A DNA stretch of 64,000 bases, from NCBI GenBank assembly GCA_965208245.1, contig OZ242325.1:158706-222705 (forward strand). The letters run 5' to 3'. Positions within the stretch are counted from its first letter, which is position 1. Each line of letters starts with the position of its first letter. The translations under genes and the position numbers were made by a program. Source of the stretch: Candidatus Poribacteria bacterium (GTDB lineage Bacteria; Poribacteria; WGA-4E; WGA-3G). This document shows positions 12,241 to 57,618 of this stretch, in pieces. Under the pieces are notes generated by a model that made no database searches, was not told where the DNA came from, and worked only from the letters and a program-made list of their open reading frames with translations.

Positions 12241-12600
12241 TTATTCTTTTGATTTTTCCTGCGGTTGTGTCGGCGGTGGTTCAGTAAATTCCTCACCCCG
12301 ATTTTCGGCTTCCTTTCGCCTGCGATCCCACGCTGCAACTTCTTCGTACACTTCCGCTTTTGCATGAACTCTCACCTGCGCTTTCATTTCTTCTTCTCTT
12401 CGGAGAAAATCCCTGAGACGTCGTAACATAATATCTATTCCTTCCCCAAAAACAACCAATCCCGTTGAGGCCGCTACTATTTTTGAGATATTATTGACTA
12501 CAAAGTAAAACAAATCAACTACTTTGTAGTTTTTGAGAAAACATTGGTGTAAAATGACACAAACGGTAAGCACAACAACATAAAAGCAGAACCACAACAC
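12241..12600 (-). CDS. Small membrane protein, member 1 of the W-x-RRR...GE-x-F-x-EPPP tail family (no tetrapeptide expansion)
   Basis: GTG start. Has hydrophobic helices and the C-terminal EVYEEVAAWDRRRKEAENRGEEFTEPPPTQP, shared with 39820-40452 and 49619-50143. Confidence 0.6.
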   Translation of the reverse strand: MLWFCFYVVVLTVCVILHQCFLKNYKVVDLFYFVVNNISKIVAASTGLVVFGEGIDIMLRRLRDFLRREEEMKAQVRVHAKAEVYEEVAAWDRRRKEAENRGEEFTEPPPTQPQEKSKE

Positions 12601-12704
12601 AGCATTTTCAGCATCTTTGACGGTAAAAATTGATGATCGCTTATTTTCTCTTCTACTATGTGTTCTTCTTCTCGATTTTCTATCATCTCGTTACTTTTGC
12701 TTAT

Positions 12705-36250: not shown

Positions 36251-38107
36251 CTACTTAACAACTATCAACCGTCGCGTCTGCTGGAATGACTCTGTCGTCA
36301 ACTGGTAGAAATAAAAACCGCTTGCGACACTTTCACCGTAGGTGTTCTTGCCATCCCAGTAAACAGCACGACCCCGATCTTGATAGTACCCTACCGATTG
36401 GAAACCGAGTGAGAAAGTACGGATAATACTACCTGTTGCGTCATATATCGTGATAGATACGTTGCTGTCTTCTGATAGACGATAGGGTATCCACGTCTCT
36501 GGGTTGAACGGGTTTGGATAATTTTGTAAGAGGTGGCTGTGTTTCGGTGTGCCAATATTCTCAAGGGTGACAGATAGAAACGCGTTTGCCAGATCGATGG
36601 GTGCCACCTGAAAACTGTACTTGTCCGAGACAGTAGAGCCGTCTGTATCAGTGATGGTTACTTCAACTGTATCACCGACCTGTACAACATTTCTGTAACT
36701 AAGGTCAGCTGTGGCAGCGGCGAAGTAATTATCCTGAACCTGTGTTGTCATCACGTTGTTTGTTCGTAAGTTTCTGACTGTTATTTGATACCCGTCATAT
36801 TCTTGCTTACCTGTCAAATGTCCACTGACCACAAATGCCCAGGTTCCCTTGGACGTTACTCCGGATACGGCAGGTGGTGCTGCAGCGGACTCCTCCGTAG
36901 TGTCTGTCCAAGGTGCTCCGACGAAAGCAAAATTGCGAGTTTTTGGGACGTTAACAATATAACCCTGACCGCCTTCAATTGCAAAACCGTCGTCAGGTGC
37001 GTTTGGTGTCCAACCGATGAAACGTTGACTTTCAGCATCAAGTGCAATTACCATAGTTGCTCCCGCCATCCCCACGAGTGATTTTGCAGTCATCGGTTTC
37101 GGTGATGCTAAAGGAACAGAAAGCATGTTTAAACCTTTCGCCAACATAACATTGTAGTAGTTACCAAAATGATCGCTTGCTGCTTTATCAACAGGTATTC
37201 CGACAAAACCGTGTACTCGACCATCCGCTGTGTCATAGAAACCGACGATAGAACCATCCTGATTGACATTTCGGACGACAGTGATAACGCTGCCTGGAAG
37301 CCGCACTTCATGGAGGATGCCACTGGGTAGAAGGATATAAGACCTTAGAAGGTCGTTTACAACTTTGGCTCTGAATCCGATAACACCAGCATCAGTGATG
37401 GTGTTCACAAATAGATATTCAAGGTTCAACATTTCTGGGAGATCTATAGTGCTGAAACTACCATCAGGGTTACGTATGAACCCATGAAACATGCCATCGA
37501 CATCAATGTAACTGCCAACAACAGCACCTGCGGCATTGACAAAGTCCCCATAAGTTGCAACTGCACCAGGGAATGTAATTATCAGATCCCCTGAGAAGGC
37601 GTGGAAGATTCCCGATGCATCAACAATGTTACCGCTCAACACTCCTGTTTCATCACTAATCCCGAAGATGAACGTCTGGACAGCACCTGGAAAATCGTAC
37701 TGTTTTAACTCGCCATTTTCGTCTAACACAACACCGTGGTAGAGTCCATCAGTGCCCTGGTAGTGCCCCGCAGCGACTCCATTATTGCCGAGGGCAAAGA
37801 AATGCGTTTTCTGTGAATCGGGAAAATCGTAGGTTGTAAAAACACCGTCAATTAGTGTAAAGGCAATCTCTTTTCCATTATCAGCACTGCGCGTATAGCC
37901 TGCGTAATCTCCAAAGTCGCTACTTGCTGTCAACGCTAAAAAATCTACACCCGGCAAGTTGACGGTTTCAAAAGTATAATATGGAATGTAGGATTCGGAG
38001 ATCAGAACGGGAACAGGTTGAGGATTTGCTTCTGCGGGGATGTACCACGCAAGACATAAGATAAAACATAATAGGAGAATGGGTTTAGTTAGTATATTGT
38101 GATTCAT
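36251..38107 (-). CDS. Secreted repeat protein (HAF-like G-x-Y-x-D-x-x-G-x-x-HGF repeats) with T9SS/FlgD-Ig-type C-terminal sorting domain
   Basis: Signal peptide MNHNILTKPILLLCFILCLAWYIPAEA. Has repeats such as GSYIDVDGMFHGFIRNPDG. C-terminal LLQNYPNPFNPETWIPY...YWDGKN..GE.VASGFYFYQL. Confidence 0.75.
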   Translation of the reverse strand: MNHNILTKPILLLCFILCLAWYIPAEANPQPVPVLISESYIPYYTFETVNLPGVDFLALTASSDFGDYAGYTRSADNGKEIAFTLIDGVFTTYDFPDSQKTHFFALGNNGVAAGHYQGTDGLYHGVVLDENGELKQYDFPGAVQTFIFGISDETGVLSGNIVDASGIFHAFSGDLIITFPGAVATYGDFVNAAGAVVGSYIDVDGMFHGFIRNPDGSFSTIDLPEMLNLEYLFVNTITDAGVIGFRAKVVNDLLRSYILLPSGILHEVRLPGSVITVVRNVNQDGSIVGFYDTADGRVHGFVGIPVDKAASDHFGNYYNVMLAKGLNMLSVPLASPKPMTAKSLVGMAGATMVIALDAESQRFIGWTPNAPDDGFAIEGGQGYIVNVPKTRNFAFVGAPWTDTTEESAAAPPAVSGVTSKGTWAFVVSGHLTGKQEYDGYQITVRNLRTNNVMTTQVQDNYFAAATADLSYRNVVQVGDTVEVTITDTDGSTVSDKYSFQVAPIDLANAFLSVTLENIGTPKHSHLLQNYPNPFNPETWIPYRLSEDSNVSITIYDATGSIIRTFSLGFQSVGYYQDRGRAVYWDGKNTYGESVASGFYFYQLTTESFQQTRRLIVVK

Positions 38108-38187
38108 AAGTGTCCTTTCTTGTAGATTGAGTTGAATTGCAAAAAATAACATATGTTACTGACTTCTGACAACTGAATACTACTGGA

Positions 38188-39555: not shown

Positions 39556-39781
39556 CTTATGCTCCCATTCAATATGACTTAGCCAGTTATAAGCAAAATT
39601 GATGTCAATTTTGGGTTTGGTAAGAAAATGAGAAATACAATGCAGGACAGGAGATTTTGCTGTTGCTTAAGGGATTTATTCAACAGAATGTGACATGTTT
39701 GTGTTCATATGCTGGACAAATAAAGTTTTAGATTTAAGTTGGGTAATTTGCGGATCCAGGAGCACCTTCAGATAAGTTGTG

Positions 39782-39810
39782 GGTCGTCAGTTAAAACTGA
39801 CGACCTTTTT
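39782..39810 (+). terminator. Intrinsic-terminator-like hairpin (ggtcgtcag-ttaaaa-ctgacgacc + TTTTT)
   Basis: 9-bp perfect stem. The T-run is on the plus strand only, and the hairpin lies 10 nt below the stop of the minus-strand gene 39820-40452. Confidence 0.5.
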
Positions 39811-39819: not shown

Positions 39820-40452
39820 TTATTCTTCTGAATTATTTTTTGGTTGTGTTGGCGGGGGGTCTGTGAACTTTTCACCCCGTTCCTCCGCTTCTCTTCTCCT
39901 GCGGTTCCATTCTTCGATCTCGCGATACACTTCCGCTTTACCAACTGCTATGCCTTCTGCTATGCCTTCTGCTTTGCCTTCTGCTATGCCTTCTGCTATG
40001 CCTTCTGCTTTGCCTTCTGCTTTGCCTTCTGCTTTGCCTTCTGCTTTGCCTTCTGCTATGCCTTCTGCTTTGCCTTCTGCTATGCCTTCTGCTTTGCCTT
40101 CTGCTATGCCTTCTGCTATGCCTTCTGCTTTGCCTTCTGCTTTGGCAATTGCTTCGGCAGCTGCTATCCGCTTCTGACGTCTAGCATCTATAAAGTCTGA
40201 CAATAACATCATTAGATCTATGCCTCCGATTATCATTGCGACGAATGTCGCGTCAACAGGTATAAACGTTGATATGTCTTTTATGACATTTTGAACGGAT
40301 ACATGTCCATTCCAGCCTTGTGTCAATTCATGCTCCAATGCAATATATCCGTATATGAGCGCAAAAAGAGAAATGAGAAATAGTACAACGCCTGTTTTTC
40401 CGGTTCTCCAGAAGTCACGAACGGCTTGCCAGAATGTGCTGTATCTTTTCAA
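39820..40452 (-). CDS. 2-TM membrane protein with ~17 x (K/I)AEG tetrapeptide repeats and conserved ...EWNRRRREAEERGEKFTDPPP tail (family member 2)
   Basis: Two hydrophobic helices, a basic stretch (ARRQKR), a 12-nt repeat tract, then the tail shared with 12241-12600 and 49619-50143. Confidence 0.7.
   Translation of the reverse strand: MKRYSTFWQAVRDFWRTGKTGVVLFLISLFALIYGYIALEHELTQGWNGHVSVQNVIKDISTFIPVDATFVAMIIGGIDLMMLLSDFIDARRQKRIAAAEAIAKAEGKAEGIAEGIAEGKAEGIAEGKAEGIAEGKAEGKAEGKAEGKAEGIAEGIAEGKAEGIAEGIAVGKAEVYREIEEWNRRRREAEERGEKFTDPPPTQPKNNSEE
39945..40145 (-). repeat. In-frame 12-nt tandem repeat (gccttctgct[a/t]t), about 17 units
   Basis: Read directly. Encodes KAEG/IAEG units. Confidence 0.9.
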
Positions 40453-40549
40453 AATGTCCCCCTAACTATTATTAAAATACTATTATTAAAATATACCATT
40501 TGCGTTGTGAAATGTCAATCTAAAAACTGTATTATATCTAAAATACTAA

Positions 40550-43438
40550 CTATTTGAGAATGAGCATTTTTCGTGTTGCAGTGAATTGGTCTGCTTTCAA
40601 GGTGTAGTAATAGATTCCACTTGCTACAGTTTCACCAAGTTGATTTTTTCCATCCCAATAGGCAGCACGACTAAAGTTTTGATAGCTTCCCGCTGTCTGA
40701 TGCCCCAACGTTAGGGTTCGGATCAACTGTCCATCTACTGTGTAAATACGAAGTGTTACATCGGCTGCTTCTGCCAATTGATAGGGTATCCAAGTTTCAG
40801 GATTGAATGGATTCGGATAATTGGGTAGGAGCGTAGTTTTTTGCGGTGTGAATAAGGCAAGCAACTGCTGTAGCACTAATATTCCTCGTTGGAATGTAGG
40901 ATCAGTTAATGTTAATTGTTGTGCTTCGGTTAACCATTTTTCAACTTGTGATTTAGTCAGCGTTGTCTCAAGGTTAGGGATCCGATATGCTGGCGCATCT
41001 GCGGAGTTTGCCATTGCTGCAGCAACCAACGTCAAATCTATGATGTCAACAATACCATCACCGTTAACATCAGCAAAGTTATCACCTTCTTGTGTGAAGT
41101 TTGAAGCGACTAAGGTTAGGTCTTGAATGTTAACCTTTCCATCTCCGTTTATGTCGCCATATTGGAGTGATGGTGCAGTGATCTGTCCATTTTCAACACG
41201 TGCATAATAGACCTGACCGGACTTGTCGGTTAACCGCACGTTGGATATAGTGAGTAGTGAAGCTTTAGGAGCAACGATCACAAAGGTTAGGTTCACAAGG
41301 GTGCCGGAACCTGAACTCTCCTCATTTAGGGAAGTAGCACCAACGGTAATGGTATTGTCTCCAAGAACGGGTGGGACAACAAACGCACCTGATGGCAAAA
41401 AGGTTGAATTTGAACTTTCAAAAAAACGGAGCGCGGTAGGATCATACCTTATAGTTGCTTGATATCCAGCGATATTGACAGCATCTGTAATGTTAAGTGA
41501 AAGTGTAAGGTACCAACCAATTGCAAGAGATTCAGTTACTTGTGGTGAAAAGTTGACTGTTGCATACATGTTGGATGAAGGTGTATAGTTCCATATAAGA
41601 GCAGTCCCATCTGCTCCGCTACTTGCGATAGTGTTACCAGTTGGACTGAATGCAACGCTGAGAACAGTATTTGTATGTCCAGTGAGGGTTTGTAGGTGTT
41701 GTCCAGAAATCGTATCCCATAATCGAACAGTGTTATCACTACTACCACTCGCGAGTGTATCTCCATTATGACTAAATGCAATGCTCCAGATCGAATTTGT
41801 ATGACCTGTGAGTATATCAAGTTCTACACCGAAAAAAGTATCCCATAACCGTACTGTTCCATCTACGCTACCGCTTGCAAGTATATCCCCGTTCGGACTG
41901 AATGCAACACTCCTGACATAATCTTCATGTCCAACAAGTGTTTTTATAGGTACTCCAGTTTCTGCGTTCCATAACTGTACGGTATCGTCTGCGCTTCCGC
42001 TTGCGATTGTTTTTCCATCTGGACTAAATGCTACACTGAGCACGGCACTAGTATGTCCCCGCAATGTGTATAGGTTTTCACCATGGATGGTATCCCATAC
42101 TCGTACTGTTCCATCTTGGCTTCCACTTGCGATAGTGTTCCCGTTTGGACTAAATGCAATACGCCATACCCAATCGGTATGTCCTGTGTATGTTCTGATG
42201 TGTTCACCGGTAGCGGCATCCCATAGTTTGACAGTTCCATCATCACTGCTGCTTGCGATTCTTGTTCCATCCGGACTGAATTCGATGCTCCATACCCAAT
42301 CGGTATGTCCTATCAATGTCTGCTGTAGTTCCCCTGTTGATGTATTCCAAAGGCTGATATTGTTGTCTGAACCGCCTATTGCTACCACGTTGCTGTCAGT
42401 CGTATTATAGGCAATTCCTAACATATAGTCATTGTATCCGGTAATAGTTTGTCTTTGTCTCCCGAACACAGCATCCCAGAGTCGAACAGTTCCATCGGCA
42501 CTTGCACTTGCAATAGTTCCCCCGCTCGCGTTGAATGCGACACTTCGTACAGCATTTGTGTGTCCTGTTAGTAATTGCTGAGGTCGTCCCGAAACAGCAT
42601 CCCACAATAGTATGGTGCCATCGGCACTTCCGCTAGCAATTGTATCTCCACTTGGACTATAGGTAACGCTTAACACAGCCCCTTGATGGTCTGGAAGTGT
42701 CTGTGTTAGTGTGCCGAATGCGGTGAACCATAGCCTAATTGTACCATCTCTACTTGCGCTTGCAAGTCTTCCTTCATTTGGACTGAAAGCGACACTGTAG
42801 ACAGCATCTTCATGTTCTCTCAGGATATGTAATTGTTCTCCAGTAGCGGTATCCCATAGTTGTACTGATGTATCTAAGCTGCAGCTCGCAAGTGTTGCAC
42901 CTGTTGCACTAAAAGCAACACTTGTTACAGTATCAAAATGTCCATCAAGTGTTCGCAAATGATCATTTGTAAACATATCCCATAACCTGATTGATCCATC
43001 TGCACTACCACTTGCCAGCAATTGTCCATTTCTGCTGAAGGTAACGGTTGTAGCAGCATCTGTATGTCCAGTAAGTGTATCTTGCAATTCTCCTGTTGAA
43101 GTATTCCAAAGATGTATAGACCCATCTCCATTAGCACTTGCAAGTGTTTGTCCATTAGGACTAAACGCAGCACCGAAGACATTCTGTGTGTCTTTAGTGA
43201 ATAGAGCCGCTTCTTCATAGGTTTGTGTGTTATAGAGCCATACCCCGATAGAACTTACGACTGCCATCATTGATCCATCGGTTGAATATTTTACTTCAAT
43301 GAGTCTGCCTTTGCCGATTCGTGTAAGTGCGTTAATTGGTAGGTTGAATTGTGTAGAAGTTTGAGAAAATGTGTCGTGAAGGAAAAGTGTCGTGAGAAAA
43401 ATAAAGGTTAAAAATACAATTGAAAGATGCTTTTTCAT
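40550..43438 (-). CDS. Secreted WD40-repeat protein (~14 blades) + cohesin-like domain + dockerin repeats + T9SS/FlgD-Ig-type C-terminal domain
   Basis: Has a signal peptide and 14 GH...SVAFSP.G..LASGS.DGT.RLWD units. Has the cohesin-like segment NIAGYQATIRYDPTALRF and dockerin GDINGDGKVNIQDL...DVNGDGIVDIIDL. C-terminal LLPNYPNPFNPETWIPY...YWDGKN. Confidence 0.85.
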   Translation of the reverse strand: MKKHLSIVFLTFIFLTTLFLHDTFSQTSTQFNLPINALTRIGKGRLIEVKYSTDGSMMAVVSSIGVWLYNTQTYEEAALFTKDTQNVFGAAFSPNGQTLASANGDGSIHLWNTSTGELQDTLTGHTDAATTVTFSRNGQLLASGSADGSIRLWDMFTNDHLRTLDGHFDTVTSVAFSATGATLASCSLDTSVQLWDTATGEQLHILREHEDAVYSVAFSPNEGRLASASRDGTIRLWFTAFGTLTQTLPDHQGAVLSVTYSPSGDTIASGSADGTILLWDAVSGRPQQLLTGHTNAVRSVAFNASGGTIASASADGTVRLWDAVFGRQRQTITGYNDYMLGIAYNTTDSNVVAIGGSDNNISLWNTSTGELQQTLIGHTDWVWSIEFSPDGTRIASSSDDGTVKLWDAATGEHIRTYTGHTDWVWRIAFSPNGNTIASGSQDGTVRVWDTIHGENLYTLRGHTSAVLSVAFSPDGKTIASGSADDTVQLWNAETGVPIKTLVGHEDYVRSVAFSPNGDILASGSVDGTVRLWDTFFGVELDILTGHTNSIWSIAFSHNGDTLASGSSDNTVRLWDTISGQHLQTLTGHTNTVLSVAFSPTGNTIASSGADGTALIWNYTPSSNMYATVNFSPQVTESLAIGWYLTLSLNITDAVNIAGYQATIRYDPTALRFFESSNSTFLPSGAFVVPPVLGDNTITVGATSLNEESSGSGTLVNLTFVIVAPKASLLTISNVRLTDKSGQVYYARVENGQITAPSLQYGDINGDGKVNIQDLTLVASNFTQEGDNFADVNGDGIVDIIDLTLVAAAMANSADAPAYRIPNLETTLTKSQVEKWLTEAQQLTLTDPTFQRGILVLQQLLALFTPQKTTLLPNYPNPFNPETWIPYQLAEAADVTLRIYTVDGQLIRTLTLGHQTAGSYQNFSRAAYWDGKNQLGETVASGIYYYTLKADQFTATRKMLILK

Positions 43439-43625: not shown

Positions 43626-44510
43626 ATGAATATACCGAACTACTATCAAATATTAGAGTTAGGACCCGATGCAACTGCCTTAGAAATAAAATATGCGTTC
43701 AGGAAACTCGCGAAACGTTATCATCCTGATAAACTTGATATCGGTTCCGAACCCGATCAGATTGCTGATGCTAAGCGGATGTTCCGAGAAGTATGCAGTG
43801 CTTACGATGTGTTACAGGACAAAAAACGCAAATCTGATTATGACCGTAGATTACAATATATAGAACGGCAGACTAATCCAAATCGTTCGTTCTATGATAA
43901 GTTCAATAACGTTAGCCAGGATTATGCAAAGTTAGAATTGTTATTTCAATCGCTTCTACATCAGAACTACGAAATAGGTATATCCATGTATGAACAGTTG
44001 TGCAGTAATTGTGAGAAGAAGGGAGGTGAATGGTGTATTGACGATTTTTTCAACTATGAAGATAGCAGAGATTGTGAGTTTCTCATCGCGGAGGCGTATC
44101 AGAAACTCGGTTTTGCCCATGGGAATTCTTCTGTTGCTGAACGGTATCGTAAAATTGAAAGAGCAATGCAAATTTATGAATCCTTGCTGTCCGCTGAGAG
44201 GAGACATCCCTGTTTTAAGCATTTTATTAGGGAGGTGAAAGATCGTCTTAAGAGAATCTATCTATTTCATTTTAGTACTGAGGGGTACCAAAAATCATCA
44301 AGAATACCTTTGTCAAAAATCAGTGCTTTAGAGTTACCGAAACGTGAAACTGCTTGGATGTATAAAAAGATCGCAGAGTTCTACGTTGAAATCGAGTTGT
44401 ATCCCAAAGCACGCAAAGTATTGTTGATGGCGTTTGAACTGCAACCGAAACTTGTTGGTGCAAAAAAAATATGTAGGATTTTGAATATCGGGAATCAGCA
44501 GATGTCGTAA
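43626..44510 (+). CDS. J-domain protein with helical/TPR-like C-terminal region
   Basis: Has NYYQILELGPDATALEIKYAFRKLAKRYHPDK. Confidence 0.8.
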   Translation: MNIPNYYQILELGPDATALEIKYAFRKLAKRYHPDKLDIGSEPDQIADAKRMFREVCSAYDVLQDKKRKSDYDRRLQYIERQTNPNRSFYDKFNNVSQDYAKLELLFQSLLHQNYEIGISMYEQLCSNCEKKGGEWCIDDFFNYEDSRDCEFLIAEAYQKLGFAHGNSSVAERYRKIERAMQIYESLLSAERRHPCFKHFIREVKDRLKRIYLFHFSTEGYQKSSRIPLSKISALELPKRETAWMYKKIAEFYVEIELYPKARKVLLMAFELQPKLVGAKKICRILNIGNQQMS

Positions 44511-44605: not shown

Positions 44606-44791
44606 TATAGTAAAGTTAATGATTAATGAGACGTTTCACTGTTTACCAAGACACCTAGCGTAGGGGCGAGGTCACCTCGCCCGTTGTGGCGCGGTGTAGG
44701 GGCGAGGTCACCTCGCCCGTTGTGGCGCGGTGTAGGGGCGAGGTCACCTCGCCCGTTGTGGCGTGTCTCATTAATTCTATAGTTTACTATA
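44606..44791 (+). mobile_element. MITE/REP element with terminal inverted repeats (attaatgagac / gtctcattaat) and three tandem 36-bp palindromic cores
   Basis: Cores (gtaggggcgaggtcacctcgcccgttgtggcgcggt) lie at 44660-44695, 44696-44731 and 44732-~44764. The outer flanks (tatagtaaag...tttactata) are also inverted. Confidence 0.75.
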
Positions 44792-49618: not shown

Positions 49619-50143
49619 TTAGCAAATATTTGTAGCGTCCACTGGAGGCGGTTCACTGAAATCTTCACCTTTCGCTTCCGCTGCAAGGCGTCGGTTATTC
49701 CAATTTATCCATAAATGCCGTTCTTCAGCTATACCTTCAGCTATACCTTCAGCTATACCTTCAACTATACCTTCAGCTTTTGCTCGCTGAATTTGGCGTT
49801 GAAGGCGTTCTTTATAGATTTGTGTAAGAAACATAATGAAATCAACTCCTTGAAATAAAATGAGAGTGAATCCTGTCGCTACGGCAATAAAAGCTGCAAG
49901 TTGCATAACAATAACCTGTACTGTTTCCATTATAGGTTGTGCTTTCGCTGCTTCATAACGAATCAAAAAGATTGTATAAACTATTACCTCGATTGAAAAT
50001 ACTTTTAGCGCAACATCAACCCAAATTCTACGTATACTGAGGATGCCAACTCTATCGTCTTTTTTATCGTCTTTTTGCATTAACTTTAGATATCTTTTGT
50101 AATTTAATTGTAGCACATTCATTGAGAAGATGCAACACATCAA
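49619..50143 (-). CDS. 2-TM membrane protein, family member 3, with 5 x (K/I)(A/V)EG units and ...WNNRRLAAEAKGEDFSEPPP tail
   Basis: Same layout as 39820-40452. Repeat tract at about 49725-49790. The start is uncertain (several Met). Confidence 0.6.
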   Translation of the reverse strand: MMCCIFSMNVLQLNYKRYLKLMQKDDKKDDRVGILSIRRIWVDVALKVFSIEVIVYTIFLIRYEAAKAQPIMETVQVIVMQLAAFIAVATGFTLILFQGVDFIMFLTQIYKERLQRQIQRAKAEGIVEGIAEGIAEGIAEERHLWINWNNRRLAAEAKGEDFSEPPPVDATNIC

Positions 50144-50360: not shown

Positions 50361-53300
50361 TTATTGTGCAGCGTTTTTGATGTCGCCCCACGACGTTGTA
50401 AGTTTTCCTTTCGCTGATATTAAGCCTTTCAACTTGGTTACAGCGAGTTGATTGTGCTGACCTGAGAATGAGATGTCTTCGATCTGATAGTAGTAAATAG
50501 CACCGGGCTTTGCTGTTGTATCAATCCATTTATAGGTGGTACGTTCTGCCGTTGTGCCTTTACCTTGTATCATCTGTTCGTTGACTTGTGTGAATTCACC
50601 GTCGCGGGTTTCGCTACGGAGGATATTGAATCCAGCGTTGTCAAGTTCGGATTCCGTTGTCCATTGGATAGTAACTTTTCCGTTTTCCGATGTTGGACGG
50701 AAGAAGGATAACTCAACGGGTAGTGCTGTGCCGCTGGTATGTAAGGGGGTGCCGAAATCATCACTGCTTCCATACCAGATTTCTTTTGCGGTTGCTAATG
50801 CGGTATCAACAGCATGAACCCATGCAGCCTTCATATTTTTTTCTGCACGTATAAGACTTCCAGATGTACTCATAGGTATCACAGAACCTGTCATATCCCC
50901 TTCCATAGTACGATCAGGGACACCTTTACGCGCCATGCCAGCTTTTCCGAAAACAGTGCCTTGCACACCTCGTGTGCCGCCATCCATGAGACGAATCAAA
51001 GATGTGCGTTTATCATCTGTTGTTAGGGCAGTGGGCCAACGCCAACTGTATGGATCGTCGAGCTCGATACCTTCACGGAGATCAGCTTCTTTCCCATCAA
51101 GGTTACCGATCTCATCAGATACATTTCCAGCACCATCAACAATCTTGATATAGAAACCGCCTGCAGCATTTAACATGTCCTGCCTGCTATTTTTCATATC
51201 CAAAGCTGCTCTGGCACTGTTCGTTCCCCATACACTTGCAACTCTGTGACTTGGGAAGTGACCCGTACCTGAGCTATGCCGTCCAGAGCGAGAAGCGATC
51301 AACACAGTCTGGTTAGGTGGAATGAACTCGATACCCTCAAAATCTTTCAAGTTAATTGTGGCATTGAGTTTACGGTTACTATCTAACCATGAACCGGAGT
51401 TATGGTTTTCAATAATCATACGCCATCCAGCATCTTTGGCACTTTTATCTGCATCACTTCCATCTACTGTAAGGTTAATACCTTTCGTTCTGGATGTGTT
51501 GTGAAGTTCAATCCATTGTGGGTAGCGTCCATTGTCGCTTGTGAGCATCAATTCACTAATGATCAAGCCACCATCATCAATATCTCCAGTTTTACCTTTC
51601 ACGACATCGTTATGGTATCCTGGCGTTCCGGCACCCATGACATCACGGTCATAACCGAGACCGCCTGAGTAGCCGACAATGGCTCCGCCACCTTTACGCC
51701 ATCCGTGTAATGTGCCATTACGTGCCCAGACTTCACCGCTCTTAAATGCATGGGCAGGATCCAGAGATGCATTGTTGTTATTGGAATCACCTGCATTATG
51801 TGCTCGGTAATTATTGCCTGTATGCCCGTTGATGGGCCATGCAAGCGTATTCCAGTAACTGCCGTTTTCAGGTTCCGTTATTTTAGCTGTAACACCAAGC
51901 GTGTTCTTTGTAACTCTTGCAGAACCTGCAACATCGTGCATATGTGTTCGGCTAGTTTTGAATTTATTATCAGCATGGCTTCGCAATATAAGGAAACCAC
52001 CTGCATCCAGTGATGCCGGAATATTCAGAGCTGTGTTATGACTCGCTTTAATATTCAGATATTTATGCTGCCCGGCACCAAGTGTTTGGTTTGCTCTGGC
52101 TTCTCTAATATTCTGTCCTGCAGCAAGACCGGTATCTTCAGGGTCACTATTGACAATTAACAACACTTCACCAGCAGGAATCTTTATATCCCAATTGAAA
52201 TGGATAATGTTCTGTTCATCAGCTTGATCATCCGTACTCGTATTAGTAACCGTTGCGCCGCCAGTGTGATTAAGTCTCCAGCCCTTAAGATTCACCTCAC
52301 CAGTGCTCACATTACGAAATTCAATCCAATCTAAACTATCATCACTACTATGATTAAAGACTTCGTTGATAATAACTTTGTCTTTAGGTGGTGTGTAAGC
52401 AGTAGGACCCGTACGTACTGATGGAAGTCCCTCACGTTCATTTGCTGTACCGGGCGTTCCCTTAAAACCGGGGAAATAGAAACGGTCAGAGGCTTTCCAA
52501 TGTGCAGCATTTGCACCATCGCCATCCTGTTTACTACGATAAATGGAAACAAACGCAGGATCCGCACCGATAATTGCTGGTGTATCACCAGTACTTCGAG
52601 TTGCTGTACCACTACTACCTTTTATAGCTGGATTCCATACATTTTGATGTCCAGCAATATTAGTGATCCTATCAACAACACCAGTTACTTTAGGAGGTGC
52701 TGGGAATGTATCATCAGTAAATATAAATGTAGGATTGGGAACAGGGGTAGTCTTACGATTATAGACTTCAATCCACTGCTGATTTGTATAACCATCTTGT
52801 CCAACACGTGAATTATCAACACCCCACATGATTTCGTTGATAATAACATCAAAATTCTCTGCAGCAGCAGTAGTAACTGCGTCAGCACCCGTGCCTGTAG
52901 TCGTAGTAATAACTAAGTCAATCGTTCCACCACCGACATTGAAGAATTCTTCAAGGTCTGGCATAGCTACATTTGAATTACCGGTAGTTGTTGTAGGGTC
53001 AATTGCAGCTAAATTAGCCTCACCTAGAGTGGATGGTAACACTGGACGAGCTGTTTCAACAGGAAGTGTAGCATCACCAGATCTCAAATAAACACGATAC
53101 GCGTAACCAGCAAGATGATTGGTTGCAAGGACAAGTGAAGTTGCACCTGCCAAATCAGTACCAAGACCTGAATCAAGACCAGTGCTATAACCTTTTAGGG
53201 TTAACCCTGCTGGAACAGTAACGTCCGAATCTGCATCTTCAAGTGTGAGTGTAACGGTTTTACCACTACTAGTAATTTTAGCAGTCGTAGCACCAGCAGC

Positions 53301-53594
53301 ACCACTAACAAAACTTGCTTTCAGTACATCACGATCACCGCCATCGTCATCAGTCGCACCGATCTGTCCATCAGTAGCTGTAAAATCAGAAAGGACTGGT
53401 ACAGGATCCGGATCCTCGGAATATGTAAACGTTATAACGACTTTCCCTTTAACCACAGGAGGTCCTGCAGCATAAGTGGTTGACTCAATATACGCAGTCA
53501 CTGTCACCTGTGCCATTGCGGTTGGCGCGACGACAAGCGCAGCAACGAGTAATATAGAAAAAATAGAAAATGTCAATCTATTTGACAAGTACAT
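50361..53594 (-). CDS. Large secreted protein with three lamin-tail-domain (LTD)-like modules and a C-terminal LPVELSFF... beta-sandwich domain
   Basis: Signal peptide ...VVAPTAMA. Has LTD-type motifs VIINEIMWG...QWIEVYN, VIINEVFNH...DWIEFRN and LIISELMLT...QWIELHN. C-terminal LPVELSFFRPTSENGKVTIQWTTESELDNAGFNILRSE. Confidence 0.7.
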   Translation of the reverse strand: MYLSNRLTFSIFSILLVAALVVAPTAMAQVTVTAYIESTTYAAGPPVVKGKVVITFTYSEDPDPVPVLSDFTATDGQIGATDDDGGDRDVLKASFVSGAAGATTAKITSSGKTVTLTLEDADSDVTVPAGLTLKGYSTGLDSGLGTDLAGATSLVLATNHLAGYAYRVYLRSGDATLPVETARPVLPSTLGEANLAAIDPTTTTGNSNVAMPDLEEFFNVGGGTIDLVITTTTGTGADAVTTAAAENFDVIINEIMWGVDNSRVGQDGYTNQQWIEVYNRKTTPVPNPTFIFTDDTFPAPPKVTGVVDRITNIAGHQNVWNPAIKGSSGTATRSTGDTPAIIGADPAFVSIYRSKQDGDGANAAHWKASDRFYFPGFKGTPGTANEREGLPSVRTGPTAYTPPKDKVIINEVFNHSSDDSLDWIEFRNVSTGEVNLKGWRLNHTGGATVTNTSTDDQADEQNIIHFNWDIKIPAGEVLLIVNSDPEDTGLAAGQNIREARANQTLGAGQHKYLNIKASHNTALNIPASLDAGGFLILRSHADNKFKTSRTHMHDVAGSARVTKNTLGVTAKITEPENGSYWNTLAWPINGHTGNNYRAHNAGDSNNNNASLDPAHAFKSGEVWARNGTLHGWRKGGGAIVGYSGGLGYDRDVMGAGTPGYHNDVVKGKTGDIDDGGLIISELMLTSDNGRYPQWIELHNTSRTKGINLTVDGSDADKSAKDAGWRMIIENHNSGSWLDSNRKLNATINLKDFEGIEFIPPNQTVLIASRSGRHSSGTGHFPSHRVASVWGTNSARAALDMKNSRQDMLNAAGGFYIKIVDGAGNVSDEIGNLDGKEADLREGIELDDPYSWRWPTALTTDDKRTSLIRLMDGGTRGVQGTVFGKAGMARKGVPDRTMEGDMTGSVIPMSTSGSLIRAEKNMKAAWVHAVDTALATAKEIWYGSSDDFGTPLHTSGTALPVELSFFRPTSENGKVTIQWTTESELDNAGFNILRSETRDGEFTQVNEQMIQGKGTTAERTTYKWIDTTAKPGAIYYYQIEDISFSGQHNQLAVTKLKGLISAKGKLTTSWGDIKNAAQ

Positions 53595-54157: not shown

Positions 54158-55135
54158 TTAGCTGTGTGTTTGTAAACGTTGCAATTGTTCTCGGAGTCGT
54201 GCGACTTCAGTTTCAGCGTTCTCAGCACGGGCTGCTTCCTGTTCAGCAAGTGTTTCAGCGTTCTCAGCACGGGCTGCTTCCTGTTCAGCAAGTGTTTCAG
54301 CGTTCTCAGCACGGGCTGCTTCCTGTTCAGCACGGGATGCCTCCTGTTCAGCACGGGATGCCTCCTGTTCAGCAAGTGTTTCAGCACTCTCAGCACGGGC
54401 TGCTTCCTGTTCAGCACGGGCTGCCTCTTGTTCAGCACGGGCTGCCTCTTGTTCAGCAAGTGTTTCAGCACTCTCAGCACGGGCTGCTTCCTGTTCAGCG
54501 CGTGTTGCTTCCTGTTCAGCACGGGCTTCGGCTGCTTCGGTTGGGGTCTGCAGCCATGCACCCGCAACAGGATCATAGAAACCTAAACCTTCATCATCCA
54601 CATGGAAATCTAAACTGAGAACATCAGAATGTAGACCCCCATCTGCATGCTCAGATATCGGAACATAAACACCACCAACTAATGTCCAACCCATCAGTTG
54701 AGATGCCAAAAATAAACCTTCCGCATCATATAAAAAGTAATCTTGGATACCTAAAGAGGTATAGAGGTCCATTTTTTTCCCTAAATCTTCAGCATAAGTG
54801 GTTTTGCTACTGAACTCCATCACAAAATCAGGCAGTTTACCTTCCACCCAAACAAGATACGTATTCCGCCTTTTTTTATCTAATCCGAAAGAGACTAACA
54901 CATCCGGGGCAACGACTCGGTGCGGATCACCCTCCACATAATACATCAGTATATCACCAGAAACATAAACATCCGGTTGTTGTGTGTAATGTGCCTTAAG
55001 TGTATCTATTGTGCAATTGAGTATATCTCTGTGCAGATCGCTCGCAGCCATGGGTTTACCATCCGTATCAGGGTAATATATCGGTATGTCTGTTGGAGCA
55101 GAAGATATTTTCTGCTTATCTGTATAGGTTGTCAT
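54158..55135 (-). CDS. Uma2 (DUF820) family PD-(D/E)XK endonuclease, copy 1, 325 aa, 14 tail heptads
   Basis: Has VVAPDVLVSFG, LPDFVMEFSSKTT and KMDLYTSLGIQDYFLYD. RBS is AAGGAG. The tail ends NAETEVARLREQLQRLQTHS. Confidence 0.88.
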   Translation of the reverse strand: MTTYTDKQKISSAPTDIPIYYPDTDGKPMAASDLHRDILNCTIDTLKAHYTQQPDVYVSGDILMYYVEGDPHRVVAPDVLVSFGLDKKRRNTYLVWVEGKLPDFVMEFSSKTTYAEDLGKKMDLYTSLGIQDYFLYDAEGLFLASQLMGWTLVGGVYVPISEHADGGLHSDVLSLDFHVDDEGLGFYDPVAGAWLQTPTEAAEARAEQEATRAEQEAARAESAETLAEQEAARAEQEAARAEQEAARAESAETLAEQEASRAEQEASRAEQEAARAENAETLAEQEAARAENAETLAEQEAARAENAETEVARLREQLQRLQTHS

Positions 55136-55205
55136 CGGTGTTTCTCCTTTTAGTCAAATACATGAAAGTATTTTAATACTTGAACCGTGGAGACTGCTTT
55201 TGCTA

Positions 55206-55235
55206 ATTATAACTGAGAATCGATAAAAATAACAA
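55206..55235 (-). promoter_or_regulatory. Candidate sigma70-type promoter of an array unit (TTGTTA-N18-TATAAT on the minus strand), repeated in every full-length spacer
   Basis: Read directly, ~70 nt upstream of the ATG. Not tested. In the two short spacers the -35 part is deleted. Confidence 0.3.
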
Positions 55236-55493
55236 GCACTTTAAAGTCCTATGCTAAAAATATGATTTTATCAGTCCGCAGGTCGGGTAGAGGGTAGCGT
55301 CATTAAAATATTAACTGGCGACACGATCAAACTTCTGTCGGGGGTCGCTACACTCAAACCAAACTACAAAGTCTACTATTAGCCCTACACAAAAACTGAC
55401 AATCTCTTAAAACTGAAGAACCCTGCCGACCTACGAAGAAAACTTGACAAGGTATTAGCTTACAAAAACTTTACACACCCTTATGGGTTTGGG

Positions 55494-56387
55494 TTAGCTA
55501 TGTGTTTGTAAACGTTGCAATTGTTCTCGGAGTCGTGCGACTTCAGTTTCAGCCGCCTCAGCACGGGATGCTTCCTGTTCAGCACGGGCTGCTTCTTGTT
55601 CAGCAAGTGTTTCAGCACTCTCAGCACGGGCTGCCTCCTGTTCAGCACGGGCTGCCTCCTGTTCAGCACGGGCTGCTTCCTGTTCAGCACGGGCTGCCTC
55701 TTGTTCAGCAAGTGTTTCAGCGTTCTCAGCACGGGCTGCTTCCTGTTCAGCGCGTGTTGCTTCCTGTTCAGCACGGGCTTCGGCTGCTTCGGTTGGGGTC
55801 TGCAGCCATGCACCCGCAACAGGATCATAGAAACCTAAACCTTCATCATCCACATGGAAATCTAAACTGAGAACATCAGAATGTAGACCCCCATCTGCAT
55901 GCTCAGATATCGGAACATAAACACCACCAACTAATGTCCAACCCATCAGTTGAGATGCCAAAAATAAACCTTCCGCATCATATAAAAAGTAATCTTGGAT
56001 ACCTAAAGAGGTATAGAGGTCCATTTTTTTCCCTAAATCTTCAGCATAAGTGGTTTTGCTACTGAACTCCATCACAAAGTCAGGCAGTTTACCTTCCACC
56101 CAAACAAGATACGTATTCCGCCTTTTTTTATCTAATCCGAAAGAGACTAACACATCCGGGGCAACGACTCGGCGCGGATCACCCTCCACATAATACATCA
56201 GTATATCACCAGAAACATAAACATCCGGTTGTTGTGCGTAATGTGCCTTAAGTGTATCTATTGTGCAATTGAGTATATCTCTGTGCAGATCGCTTGCAGC
56301 CATGGGTTTACCATCCGTATCAGGGTAATATATCGGTATGTCTGTTGGAGCAGAAGATATTTTCTGCTTATCTGTATAGGTTGTCAT
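55494..56387 (-). CDS. Uma2 family endonuclease, copy 2, 297 aa, 10 tail heptads
   Basis: Same core as copy 1. Confidence 0.88.
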   Translation of the reverse strand: MTTYTDKQKISSAPTDIPIYYPDTDGKPMAASDLHRDILNCTIDTLKAHYAQQPDVYVSGDILMYYVEGDPRRVVAPDVLVSFGLDKKRRNTYLVWVEGKLPDFVMEFSSKTTYAEDLGKKMDLYTSLGIQDYFLYDAEGLFLASQLMGWTLVGGVYVPISEHADGGLHSDVLSLDFHVDDEGLGFYDPVAGAWLQTPTEAAEARAEQEATRAEQEAARAENAETLAEQEAARAEQEAARAEQEAARAEQEAARAESAETLAEQEAARAEQEASRAEAAETEVARLREQLQRLQTHS

Positions 56388-56745
56388 CGGTATTTCTCCT
56401 TTTAGTCAAATACATGAAAGTATTTTAATACTTGAACCGTGGAGACTGCTTTTGCTAATTATAACTGAGAATCGATAAAAATAACAAGCACTTTAAAGTC
56501 CTATGCTAAAAATATGATTTTATCAGTCCGTAGGTCGGGTAGAGGGTAGCGTCATTAAAATATTAACTAGCGACACGATCAAACTTCTGTCGGGGGTCGC
56601 TTCGCTCAAACCAAACTACAAAGTCCACTATTAGCCCTACACAAAAACTGACAATCTCTTAAAACTGAAGAACCCTGCCGACCTACGAAGAAAACTTGAC
56701 AAGGTATTAGCTTACAAAAACTTTACACACCCTTATGGGTTTGGG

Positions 56746-57618
56746 TTAGCTATGTGTTTGTAAACGTTGCAATTGTTCTCGGAGTCGTGCGACTTCAGTT
56801 TCAGCCGCCTCAGCACGGGATGCTTCCTGTTCGGCACGGGCTGCTTCTTGTTCAGCAAGTGTTTCAGCACTCTCAGCACGGGCTGCTTCCTGTTCAGCAC
56901 GGGCTGCCTCTTGTTCAGCACGGGCTGCCTCTTGTTCAGCAAGTGTTTCAGCACTCTCAGCACGTGTTGCTTCCTGTTTTGCAAGTGTTTCAGCGTTCTC
57001 AGCGCGTGCTTCGGCTGCTTCGGTTGGGGTCTGCAGCCATGCACCCGCAACAGGATCATAGAAACCTAAACCTTCATCATCCACATGGAAATCTAAACTG
57101 AGAACATCAGAATGTAGACCCCCATCTGCATGCTCAGATATCGGAACATAAACACCACCAACTAATGTCCAACCCATCAGTTGAGATGCCAAAAATAAAC
57201 CTTCCGCATCATATAAAAAGTAATCTTGGATACCTAAAGAGGTATAGAGGTCCATTTTTTTCCCTAAATCTTCAGCATAAGTGGTTTTGCTACTGAACTC
57301 CATCACAAAATCAGGCAGTTTACCTTCCACCCAAACAAGATACGTATTCCGCCTTTTTTTATCTAATCCGAAAGAGACTAACACATCCGGGGCAACGACT
57401 CGGCGCGGATCACCCTCCACATAATACATCAGTATATCACCAGAAACATAAACATCCGGTTGTTGTGTGTAATGTGCCTTAAGTGTATCTATTGTGCAAT
57501 TGAGTATATCTCTGTGCAGATCGCTTGCAGCCATGGGTTTACCATCCGTATCAGGGTAATATATCGGTATGTCTGTTGGAGCAGAAGATATTTTCTGCTT
57601 ATCTGTATAGGTTGTCAT
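56746..57618 (-). CDS. Uma2 family endonuclease, copy 3, 290 aa, 9 tail heptads
   Basis: Same core as copy 1. Confidence 0.88.
   Translation of the reverse strand: MTTYTDKQKISSAPTDIPIYYPDTDGKPMAASDLHRDILNCTIDTLKAHYTQQPDVYVSGDILMYYVEGDPRRVVAPDVLVSFGLDKKRRNTYLVWVEGKLPDFVMEFSSKTTYAEDLGKKMDLYTSLGIQDYFLYDAEGLFLASQLMGWTLVGGVYVPISEHADGGLHSDVLSLDFHVDDEGLGFYDPVAGAWLQTPTEAAEARAENAETLAKQEATRAESAETLAEQEAARAEQEAARAEQEAARAESAETLAEQEAARAEQEASRAEAAETEVARLREQLQRLQTHS

Follow-up and report, generated by a model that had tools for sequence, protein, structure and literature searches.

Comparison with Rpn systems

The closest described counterparts of the genes reported here are the Rpn long/short systems RpnA-E and RpnP2 (Zhong et al., PNAS 2023, PMC10400941). 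These carry an internal translation start, and their four-residue repeats, encoded by DNA dodecamers, lie in a long helix at the dimer interface. The long product (L) pairs with the short product (S) only when the two have an equal number of repeats (PMC10400941). Separate downstream S genes arise via tandem duplication, and the systems occur in multiple copies and are subject to horizontal transfer (PMC10400941). RpnS, which corresponds to DUF4351 (PF14261), has repeats that start 8-20 residues past its Met (PMC10400941).

We analysed a 64-kb stretch of DNA from Candidatus Poribacteria (the window), which contains three small membrane-protein genes, W1 (12241-12600), W2 (39820-40452) and W3 (49619-50080), all on the minus strand. 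Like Rpn, each appears to combine two products in one gene by means of an internal start, a likeness that in this family is seen at the level of signals. As in Rpn, 12-nt units that encode a single hydrophobic residue along with charged residues or glycine vary in number within a long helix, extra S genes are found downstream of the long gene with repeats ~10-20 residues past the S start, and the family is multi-copy and horizontally mobile. Unlike Rpn, the proteins have a hairpin of two transmembrane (TM) helices in place of the PD-(D/E)XK nuclease, and W1-W3 have no nuclease match in Pfam or NCBIfam. The C-terminal end, W-RR-A-G-F-(E/D)PPP, is modelled by AlphaFold2 as helix and coil rather than as the three-helix bundle of DUF4351, and PF14261 gives no match. 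Also, the variable part is the C-terminal domain in Rpn, whereas in W1-W3 and their homologs conservation is highest in the tail, and it is the membrane domain that varies. We consider the chances about even that each locus encodes two products on the Rpn long/short plan, with a small membrane domain replacing the nuclease.

A large family of small membrane proteins

W1, W2 and W3 share one layout, in which two TM helices are followed by a basic stretch, a tract of 12-nt units encoding the four residues (K/I)AEG, and a conserved tail (Table 1). Much of this had been recognized in the initial annotation, whose placement of three ORFs on the minus strand held up. Kyte-Doolittle windows and AlphaFold2 helices agree on two hydrophobic helices per ORF, the second ends in G(I/V)D(I/L/F)(M/I)M in all three as described there, and the tail sequences are those it quoted. 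The repeat tract does separate a conserved core from a conserved C-terminal peptide, and its length differs among the paralogs. The third ORF had been given as 49619-50143, which is indeed the mechanical ORF, but based on homologs the start of W3 is most likely ATG 50080, which shortens the protein from 174 to 153 aa. The topology check proposed at the same time is consistent with two TM helices, and the K/R counts favour an N-in/C-in arrangement with both ends cytoplasmic.

Table 1. Positions of features of W1, W2 and W3 in the window.
Feature	Position	Strand	Basis
W1 family homology range; sole in-frame start GTG 12600; long form interrupted	12241..12654	-	
W1 predicted short form, 62 aa, MLRRLRDFLRREEE...	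12241..12429	-	prediction from sequence
W1 conserved tail, ...KAEVYEEVAAWDRRRKEAENRGEEFTEPPP	12271..12366	-	
W1 internal GAAGGA, 9 nt upstream of internal ATG	12439..12444	-	
W1 A-run, apparently one A short relative to 148-aa ortholog P0002	12644..12647	-	
Hairpin of 11 pairs, 3' of W2 stop; T-run on plus strand	39781..39806	.	
W2 long form, 210 aa, TTG start, two TM, 17 units, tail	39820..40452	-	ORF read, AlphaFold2, hydropathy
W2 predicted short form, 130 aa from Met81, MMLLSDF... + repeat + tail	39820..40212	-	prediction from sequence
W2 conserved tail, KAEVYREIEEWNRRRREAEERGEKFTDPPP	39850..39939	-	
W2 repeat tract, 17 x 12 nt: 9 KAEG, 7 IAEG, 1 IAVG	39940..40143	-	
W2 TM2, ~residues 64-84, end GGIDLMM	40201..40263	-	AlphaFold2 + hydropathy
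W2 internal GGAGG in codons of a conserved Gly-Gly pair, 10 nt upstream of internal ATG	40223..40227	-	
W2 TM1, residues 21-39	40336..40392	-	AlphaFold2 + hydropathy
W2 ribosome-binding site AGGGGGA, 5 nt upstream of TTG start	40457..40463	-	read from sequence
W2 sigma-70-like promoter match TTGACA-17-TATATT, 11/12 positions, TG extension	40490..40518	-	consensus match only
W3 long form, 153 aa from ATG 50080; mechanical ORF reaches 50143	49619..50080	-	start by homologs
W3 predicted short form, 71 aa, MFLTQIYKERLQ...	49619..49834	-	prediction from sequence
W3 conserved tail, ...ERHLWINWNNRRLAAEAKGEDFSEPPP	49643..49732	-	
W3 repeat tract, 4 units KAEG/IVEG/IAEG/IAEG, GCT/GGT codons, then partial IAEE unit	49733..49780	-	
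W3 internal AAGGAG, 11 nt upstream of internal ATG	49846..49851	-	

The three genes had been viewed as a three-member family, but an exhaustive search recovers 1,479 cluster representatives, and the family is large, unnamed and spread over at least three phyla. The proposal to look for the motif in related metagenome-assembled genomes (MAGs) proved productive, as a codon-pattern scan finds the tail in MAGs of Chloroflexota, Ca. Poribacteria and Gammaproteobacteria, many of which have sponge- or coral-style names. This distribution points to gene flow and to a common selective pressure in holobionts. Several chromosomal paralogs occur per genome.

The initial annotation assigned these proteins to no named family, and we concur: Pfam, NCBIfam, PADLOC and PHROGs return only low-complexity or sub-threshold matches, Foldseek against the PDB finds nothing below E=3, and a profile search of the PDB is likewise empty. 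The N-terminal domain has no similarity to known toxins or effectors, with nothing significant in PADLOC or PHROGs. Exact-sequence look-up of the window proteins and of the predicted short forms gave no match in the searched collection, and a literature search found no paper describing the family. When neighbouring ORFs were clustered, no recurrent neighbour emerged; the best one, an ordinary short-chain dehydrogenase, was present in 8 of 120 loci, and thus the locus is self-contained. Neighbours of the three window genes are housekeeping or secreted-protein genes. Given the T-run on the plus strand, the hairpin 3' of W2 may act as a bidirectional terminator.

Tail, repeat tract and predicted structure

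The tail consensus is W-x2-RR-x2-A-x3-G-x2-F-x-(E/D)-PPP. Among 177 distinct tails, W0, R3, R4, A7, G11, F14, E16 and P17-19 are near-invariant, and conservation ends directly after PPP. The tail had been likened to a short linear interaction motif, a description that captures only part of it: W0, R4, A7, G11 and F14 share one helix face within a helical module of ~30 residues. Its register relative to the repeats is fixed, with the last repeat Gly at -11 in 172/184 cases. It had been asked whether the tail similarity might not be significant; the codon pattern of the invariant residues occurs exactly three times in the window and in 0 of 100 dinucleotide-preserving shuffles. The W1 and W2 tails are identical at 21 of 32 residues, 10 of which are encoded by different synonymous codons in the two genes, indicating conservation at the level of the protein rather than of a DNA repeat.

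Unit numbers are 0 in W1, 17 in W2 and 4 in W3, and homologs have 1-17 in-register Gly. Earlier counts of about 1, 17 and 5 were right for W2, but W3 has four full units and a partial fifth, and W1 has no true unit. In W2, 16 of the 17 units differ solely by AAA versus ATA. The same residues are encoded by GCA/GGC in W2 and by GCT/GGT in W3, and the expansions in the two genes are apparently independent. The repeat DNA also opens ORFs on the opposite strand.

AlphaFold2 models the repeat tract of W2 and W3 as helix, with low confidence inside the tract. W2 is almost all helix (tail pLDDT 85-86), and W3 has a helix at residues 11-45, one continuous helix at 50-137 and then coil over EDFSEPPP (tail pLDDT 83-89, repeat pLDDT ~60). 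We considered a Trp-cage-like packing of PPP on the Trp; AlphaFold2 gives a straight helix followed by coil.

Helices with glycine at every fourth residue, or with a variable number of short units, are found in other proteins. In the type I restriction specificity subunits EcoR124I/II, cited in PMC10400941, the number of four-residue helical repeats (TAEL) likewise acts as a specificity-setting spacer, although there the repeats space two DNA-binding domains within one protein, and these subunits are unrelated in family, context and output. Proteins with the Yae1/Lto1 deca-GX3 motif (Yae1_N, PF09811) also have a pairing helix with Gly at every fourth residue over ~40 residues. They differ in being eukaryotic Fe-S adaptor proteins of fixed length that lack both a membrane domain and a tail of this kind; the score of W2 with PF09811 is 25.5 bits, below the Pfam cutoff of 27.5, and W1 and W3 have no match. 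A helical run of (A/G)xxxG repeats of variable length is shared with FliH/YscL. One S form has been given the name FliH in a source, and NCBIfam FliH models match the W2 repeat, but with 26-42 bits against cutoffs of 180-293 and covering the repeat only. Unlike FliH, the W1-W3 family lacks the FliH C-terminal domain and a flagellar or type III secretion context.

An internal start signal at the end of the second helix

In 97 of 114 full-length genes, an ATG lies between -12 and +6 relative to where TM2 ends. At -18 to -4 from this codon, a Shine-Dalgarno (SD) core of at least 5 nt is present in 69/97 genes, 2.6-fold above the 26.5 ± 4.0 expected when synonymous codons are resampled according to the codon usage of the locus itself (at most 39 in any of 300 runs), the counted sequences being related to one another and hence non-independent. 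Non-redundant representatives give 53/77 versus 21.2 ± 3.2 by synonymous resampling. By comparison, none of 38 ATGs at the preceding 10 codon positions, in the TM2 interior, has an SD core. W1, W2 and W3 all have the internal SD-like core and ATG.

Based on these signals, the ATG that ends TM2 is the apparent start of a soluble short form, which is a new finding. The initial annotation of the three genes had overlooked the internal SD and ATG, as well as the stand-alone short copies described below and the parallel to Rpn long/short systems. Some observations run against a short form: 17/114 genes have no ATG in the scanned window, 28/97 lack a 5-nt core, and in Poribacteria genes the SD-to-ATG spacing is long (9-13 nt). 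The internal SD-like sequences could have a role other than starting a short form.

Stand-alone short copies and module exchange

Copies beginning at the TM2-end Met are located 200-1,300 bp downstream of full genes in ~20 related loci (for example L083, L027, L080 and L102); within the 64-kb window there is no separate short copy. The number of units is unequal in 19 of 24 adjacent copy pairs, and 27 of 46 S-only copies keep the SD. The best 120 tail-only profile matches are all 48-74 aa long and begin at the TM2-end Met. Repeats set in at a median of 19 residues past this Met. Gene callers are inconsistent at family loci and often predict the S form alone.

Repeat and tail are also joined to other domains. 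At L084:5320-6192 a soluble N-terminal domain is fused to the family repeat and tail, with GGAGG-5 nt-ATG just ahead of these two parts. The Rpn model TIGR01784 is the sole family that this N-terminal domain matches, with E=0.036 and 13.9 bits versus a cutoff of 52.1; Pfam gives no match. P0246 has the two-TM core with a different C-terminal end, and P0248, P0259 and P0316 consist of soluble tandem repeat-and-tail modules. DUF4351 was not detected by Pfam in the hybrids P0246 and P0311. Domain swapping at the repeat helix is evident in the hybrids.

Alternative explanations

The proteins could instead be single-product membrane tethers, in which a flexible or rod-like Gly-x3 stalk of variable reach extends into the cytoplasm and offers the W/RR/F-EPPP head for docking of a conserved cytoplasmic partner or for self-association. 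The partial copies found downstream would then be duplicates in decay, and the SD-like sequence inside the gene would be incidental or would mark a pause site. Both the topology and the long helix are compatible with a tether, the invariant residues occupy one helix face as a docking site would, and the occurrence of the tail in soluble proteins and tandem modules also fits. The lack of a travelling partner gene would suit a universal host partner or self-pairing. We nevertheless regard a tether as rather unlikely, since it leaves unexplained an SD enrichment placed exactly upstream of the conserved Met, S-only copies that start at this Met and often retain the SD, and unequal unit numbers in adjacent copies. 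Holin/antiholin-like or phage-derived lysis or exclusion proteins, which would form membrane lesions and have a second start providing an inhibitor as in lambda S105/S107, seem improbable. As in lambda S105/S107 and phage 21 S68/S71, the membrane protein is small and charged at its cytoplasmic C-terminus, and a single frame holds two start signals whose products could be opposed; two TM helices with both ends cytoplasmic match the class II holin layout, which is a resemblance only. P0033 weakly matches the phage membrane-protein family phrog_944 (E=1.8e-5), and a phage virion-module protein contains a single instance of the tail motif. However, in those holins 2-3 codons separate the starts and each product is a membrane protein, whereas the short form in the W1-W3 family would be left without either TM helix, which sets it apart from known antiholins. 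A lysis cassette is absent, endolysin and phage genes are neither nearby in the window nor recurrent in 120 loci, there is no significant PHROG match, and genomes carry several chromosomal paralogs. Among 2.9 million viral contigs there is a single match, inside an unrelated 737-aa protein at L124:1296-3509.

We rejected two further explanations. One is a force-sensing translation-arrest peptide of the SecM, MifM, VemP and RAPP class, in which the ribosome would stall on the conserved 20-30 residues ending in PPP, and the peptide would thereby report on membrane insertion and control a gene downstream. EPPP is an EF-P-dependent context, the conserved stretch is roughly as long as the ribosomal exit tunnel and stops right at PPP, and the TM segments are N-terminal to it. 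Against arrest, each gene is monocistronic, with a promoter match of its own and a terminator hairpin after the stop codon, and no conserved gene follows. Known arrest peptides are located upstream of protein-localisation genes (PMC12992588). Among homologs, TM2 and PPP are ~45 to 115 residues apart, implying no fixed force geometry; in addition, the motif appears in soluble and tandem contexts and its invariant residues have a helical a/d-like spacing. This makes an arrest peptide very improbable. The other, that the ORFs are spurious, non-functional products of low-complexity repeat DNA, has a negligible probability: it could draw on the frameshift in W1 and on the opposite-strand ORFs, but it is contradicted by hundreds of homologs that keep the protein sequence through synonymous changes, by tail residues that are invariant across three phyla, and by the presence of promoter, ribosome-binding site and terminator signals.

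A possible long/short mechanism

If the loci are two-product genes of the Rpn kind, L would be a helical hairpin with both termini in the cytoplasm, and its TM2 would run on into a cytoplasmic helix of four-residue units, each consisting of one hydrophobic or basic residue, Ala, Glu and Gly. This helix would end in the one-faced W/RR/A/G/F segment, and (E/D)PPP would close the conserved part. S would start at the conserved TM2-end Met, behind the SD-like sequence in Gly/Glu codons, and would comprise a soluble repeat helix plus the tail. The long helix would mediate L-S and L-L pairing, and the conserved tail would set the register. The number of units would then determine how the membrane-proximal ends align, so that each paralog would pair solely with its own S. 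Slippage of the 12-nt repeats would shift the unit number, and tandem duplication would yield the extra S-only genes.

By analogy with Rpn, L and S would pair with length-matched specificity, the membrane domain would be toxic, and the system would act in phage defence or in some other conflict. In its most specific form, this suggests a widespread, horizontally exchanged conflict system of sponge and coral holobionts, in which a two-TM toxin carries an intragenic antitoxin, the unit number works like a vernier, keeping dozens of paralogs insulated from one another, and the W-RR-F-EPPP cap acts as a registration or trigger site that some phages possibly mimic; we offer this tentatively, as possible though doubtful.

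If the two-product reading is true, the "antitoxin within a toxin" of Rpn and its length-coded pairing are not bound to a nuclease, and the Rpn-style design would be a portable regulatory cassette able to drive a membrane effector. A working model would also be gained for ~1,500 protein clusters, which are mostly annotated as hypothetical or split into fragments. The family raises a testable question, namely how the number of four-residue repeats is translated into protein-protein specificity.

The W1 locus and a second repeat family in the window

W1 is truncated at its N-terminus. Homology runs upstream to 12654, where there is no in-frame start codon, and the upstream ATG 12686 is in a different frame, split from the rest of the gene. 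This is consistent with the loss of 1 nt in the A-run relative to P0002 (Table 1). The apparent upstream frameshift leaves the predicted W1 short form intact.

The initial annotation had also drawn a parallel between the (K/I)AEG tracts and the tails of Uma2 proteins encoded in the same window. As an observation this parallel is well founded, as eight tandem Uma2 genes differ from one another by 7-aa units.

Three membrane-hairpin genes with a common tail

The three minus-strand open reading frames that the initial annotation had placed in the window (W1, W2 and W3) are all present, and they share the single layout proposed for them: a pair of hydrophobic helices, the motif G(I/V)D-x-(I/M)M and a tail at the C-terminus, all of which can be aligned. 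Hydropathy predicts two transmembrane (TM) segments in each protein, and the Lys/Arg counts (in W2, 5 ahead of TM1, 1 in the loop and 4 right behind TM2) favor a topology in which both ends would be cytoplasmic.

The invariant tail columns are W, RR, AE, GE, F and PPP. A codon pattern restricted to invariant residues (W-x2-R-R-x2-A-x3-G-x2-F-x-[E/D]-P-P-P) has exactly three matches in the window and none in 100 shuffles. The W1 and W2 tails are identical at 21 of 32 residues, 10 of which use different synonymous codons, indicating that selection acts on the protein.

The tracts are genuine tandem arrays with a 12-nt repeat. The 17 units reported for W2 were confirmed (16 are distinguished only by AAA (Lys) vs ATA (Ile)), but the counts of about 1 for W1 and 5 for W3 change to no real unit and to 4 units plus a partial fifth. 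Repeat length does vary between paralogs, as claimed, and ranges from 1 to 17 units across homologs, W2 being the highest seen. Because the repeat is encoded by GCT/GGT in W3 and by GCA/GGC in W2, the two arrays expanded independently, in a slippage-type manner.

From its sequence, W2 looks like a complete transcription unit, with a promoter match (TTGACA-17-TATATT), a ribosome-binding site (AGGGGGA) ahead of a TTG start and a hairpin beyond the stop. By comparison with homologs, W3 starts at ATG 50080 and encodes 153 aa; near this N-terminus, a second 12-nt duplication yields KDDKKDDR where homologs have KDDR. Homology of W1 extends upstream to 12654 with no start codon along the way, and the ATG at 12686 is in a different frame from the rest of the gene. 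An A-run in this interval is apparently one A short relative to the 148-aa ortholog P0002, and the interruption (12644-12686) may be either a genuine frameshift or a homopolymer error. A 22-nt sequence (ATAGTAGCATATTTTAGACTAA) is perfectly duplicated in tandem, in two copies, a short way upstream of the W1 start region.

Family genes and other features of the window
Feature	Position	Strand	Details
W1 open reading frame	12241-12600	minus	Neighbors: succinyl-CoA ligase gene; molybdopterin-binding (MoCF_biosynth) gene
W1 SD-like core	12444-12439	minus	GAAGGA
W1 internal ATG	12429-12427	minus	Predicted short form, 62 aa
W1 A-run	12644-12647
22-nt tandem duplication	12705-12749
J-domain (DnaJ) gene	14236-15090
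Putatively secreted large protein	36251-38152		633 aa
W2 open reading frame	39820-40452	minus	Neighbors: WD40 protein; sulfotransferase
W2 internal ATG	40212-40210	minus	Met81; predicted short form, 130 aa
W2 SD-like core	40227-40223	minus	GGAGG
Sigma-70-like match inside W2	40229-40256	minus	TTGACG-16-GATAAT (10/12)
Putatively secreted large protein	40550-43438
J-domain (DnaJ) gene	43626-44510
36-nt tandem repeat	44660-44763		2.9 copies
W3 open reading frame	49619-50143	minus	Neighbors: 1,077-aa protein; TPR/BatD cluster
W3 internal ATG	49834-49832	minus	Predicted short form, 71 aa
W3 SD-like core	49851-49846	minus	AAGGAG
W3 12-nt duplication	50053-50076
Putatively secreted large protein	50361-53594
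Uma2-like genes	54158-63922	minus	Eight in tandem

A large family across several phyla

No fitting family was found in Pfam, NCBIfam, PADLOC or PHROGs, and a profile search of PDB sequences and Foldseek against the PDB returned no relative, in line with the initial view that the proteins belong to no named family. The low-complexity repeat was the sole source of family-database matches, scoring 25.5 bits with Yae1_N (cutoff 27.5) and far under the cutoffs with FliH models. The family is much larger than the three members first recognized: among 1.84 billion cluster representatives searched exhaustively with HMMER, 1,479 match at E≤1e-3 and 498 still do so at E≤1e-10. Homologs of W1 and W3 number more than 230 proteins in several subfamilies, with several paralogs per contig, and all the named ones are from Candidatus Poribacteria.

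Across 177 distinct tails, W0, R3, R4, A7, G11, F14, E16 and P17-19 are 94-100% conserved, and conservation drops off directly past PPP. These positions have a 4-3-4-3 spacing, so that they share a single helix face. The last repeat Gly lies exactly 11 residues before the Trp in 172/184 cases, which indicates that repeat and tail form one helix in fixed register. The description of the tail as a short linear motif was therefore too narrow. An AlphaFold2 model of W3, built on a 99-sequence alignment, predicts a helix at 11-45 and, past a short turn, an unbroken helix at 50-137 that takes in TM2, the repeat and the tail as far as the conserved Gly, EDFSEPPP being coil (mean pLDDT 79.7; tail 83-89; repeat about 60). 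The W2 model agrees, with low pLDDT (42-59) in the 17-unit tract and 85-86 in the tail.

A codon-pattern scan for the invariant tail residues, using one genome per GTDB species, found at least 120 loci. Among these listed matches, about 85 are, by record title, from Dehalococcoidia or other Chloroflexota (including one Anaerolineaceae and one Tepidiformaceae record), 27 from Ca. Poribacteria, two from Pseudomonadales and one from Arenicellales. The tail occurs in related MAGs, where the initial annotation had proposed to look, and reaches further, into Chloroflexota, Pseudomonadales and Arenicellales. All listed loci translate to one layout: an N-terminal motif (R-x-S-[ILW]-[WFL]-[ST]-[VIL]), TM1, loop, TM2, basic stretch, (x-x-E-G)n units such as REEG, RAEG, LEQG and RQEG, and the tail. 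Records of Pseudomonadales and of Dehalococcoidia share one subfamily, …LLMSLYQAMVNRF…, an indication of horizontal transfer. Many isolate names among the listed loci follow a sponge or coral style. According to PMC7883664, the SB06xx bins, to which SB0675_bin_22 (locus L033) belongs, are sponge-associated Entoporibacteria; for other records, the names suggest such a habitat.

The only viral match to the tail pattern is on IMG/VR contig IMGVR_UViG_3300045256_000126 (L124:1296-3509), an uncharacterized 737-aa protein with an internal YQRAFRNWDARRQAAANAGRPFNDPPP and a tail-fiber gene just downstream. The phage may here be mimicking the tail module.

A start signal at the end of TM2

At its cytoplasmic end, TM2 has a conserved position that is either acidic or Gly-Gly, and in almost every member a Met lies a few residues past it. 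The repeat starts a median of 19 residues after this Met. In 97/114 full-length genes, an ATG lies close to the TM2 end (-12 to +6 codons), and 69 of these 97 have a core of ≥5 nt matching TAAGGAGGTGA at positions -18 to -4. When codons were resampled synonymously by each locus's own usage, with amino acids kept and an identical best-of-candidates rule, 26.5 ± 4.0 cores were expected (maximum 39 in 300 runs); for non-redundant representatives the core is found in 53/77 vs 21.2 ± 3.2 expected. The 10 codon positions ahead of this, in the TM2 interior, contain 38 ATGs, none with such a core. The core is encoded by conserved residues, Glu + Gly/Ala/Val giving GAGG and Gly-Gly giving GGAGG. All three window genes carry it, and the predicted short form of W1 is unaffected by the upstream frameshift. 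A sigma-70-like match lies immediately upstream of the internal SD/ATG of W2; it is weak evidence, since the scan gave 8 sites vs 5.1 expected.

A tail-only profile search returned 413 proteins, and the best 120 of the 413 are all 48-74 aa long and start at the TM2-end Met (MVLA…, MFQRIRD…, MSLYQ…, MLLSD…). Gene callers thus already predict the short form alone. At about 20 loci, one or two copies of only the 3' part, starting where TM2 ends, follow 200-1,300 bp downstream of a full-length gene. These short-only copies start at the TM2-end Met and retain a core of ≥5 nt in 27/46. Locus L083 is a head-to-tail array with a 224-nt unit (identities 100%, 95% and 66%), and P0398, a tail-profile match, is its short-only copy. 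Unit number is unequal between adjacent copies in 19/24 pairs (7 vs 3 in L083; 2 vs 4 in L102; 5, 6 and 10 in L027).

The repeat and tail also move as a module. A soluble 290-aa Poribacteria protein (L084:5320-6192) joins LEQG/ITKG units and the family tail to a different, soluble N-domain. This hybrid has GGAGG-5 nt-ATG immediately upstream of its repeat, just before ESPFYQ. Its sole family match is to the Rpn model TIGR01784 (E=0.036), making the N-domain weakly Rpn-like by sequence. Conversely, P0246 has the two-TM core joined to a different helical C-end, in which Pfam did not confirm DUF4351. P0248, P0259 and P0316 are soluble tandem repeat+tail modules, and P0026 and P0358 carry the module twice each; some of these five tandem homologs lack the membrane domain.

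Resemblance to Rpn and a possible mode of action

The rpn genes encode a toxic nuclease, RpnL, and, from an internal start, its C-terminal domain RpnS (DUF4351), which binds and blocks RpnL (Zhong et al., PMC10400941). Rpn repeats start 8-20 residues past the RpnS start and vary widely in number among strains, and RpnC-L is blocked by RpnC-S only at equal repeat number; some rpn genes have extra S genes downstream, and arrays arise from tandem direct duplication (PMC10400941). Judged by sequence, our family appears to reproduce each of these architectural features. The rpn genes have an internal promoter, for which the sigma-70-like match inside W2 is a weak candidate. The family lacks the PD-(D/E)XK domain and DUF4351, the two features that define Rpn membership, and has instead a two-TM hairpin and a W-RR-A-G-F-(E/D)PPP helix. 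By analogy, then, the genes may work like an Rpn L/S locus without being Rpn family members. The Yae1/Lto1 deca-GX3 motif, FliH GxxxG repeats, EcoR124 TAEL repeats and dual-start holins show only partial likeness.

We propose that the short form (S) would be made as a separate product from the internal start and would pair with the long form (L) along the repeat helix, with the register set by the conserved tail. Whether the membrane-proximal ends meet would then depend on unit number, so that paralogs such as those in the window, with 0, 17 and 4 units, would be insulated from one another. The membrane domain may be harmful when unpaired, and the system may serve phage defense or another conflict. 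Against this two-product reading, the tail is conserved rather than variable, and nothing marks the N-domain as a toxin. The main rival, a membrane tether made as a single product, explains the anatomy but leaves the start signal and the short-only copies without explanation. An arrest peptide, a holin or spurious ORFs are weaker candidates still than the tether. The locus would then be an Rpn-like gene-within-gene design with a membrane domain and a new tail. This two-product reading would generalize a recently discovered regulatory design and name a large family that spans phyla, and it can be tested directly.

Genomic neighborhood

The neighbors of W1, W2 and W3 are mutually unrelated. P0044, a W2 ortholog, keeps the WD40 and sulfotransferase synteny; W1 and W3 orthologs are found at other locations, often next to transposases or restriction-modification genes. 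Clustering of all ORFs within 4 kb of 120 loci gave no recurrent partner, the most frequent cluster (8/120 loci) being an ordinary short-chain dehydrogenase. The locus is self-contained.

Large, putatively secreted proteins lie beside W2 and W3, and no link between them and the family was found. FlgD_ig and Por_Secre_tail domains were confirmed in the 633-aa protein; the 1,077-aa protein and the WD40-repeat protein of 962 aa are putatively secreted by sequence, and the C-terminus of the WD40 protein beside W2 is, by resemblance, a candidate type IX secretion sorting tail. J-domain genes lie 2-3 kb from W1 and W2, probably by coincidence; J-domain proteins are absent from the Pfam-scanned neighbor clusters, none of which occurs in more than 8/120 related loci. 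A perfect 36-nt tandem repeat (GTAGGGGCGAGGTCACCTCGCCCGTTGTGGCGCGGT) with an internal palindrome has no spacers and is thus not a CRISPR array.

The window also carries eight tandem Uma2-like genes, whose main difference is how many 7-aa (21-nt) QEAARAE-type units stand ahead of a conserved ETEVARLREQLQRLQTHS end. The seven that are complete encode 290, 297, 304, 311, 318, 325 and 332 aa, in steps of 7; the eighth runs past the window end and, assuming that it is as complete as the others, would reach about 332 aa. The series may mean that a nuclease family uses the same length-coded logic.
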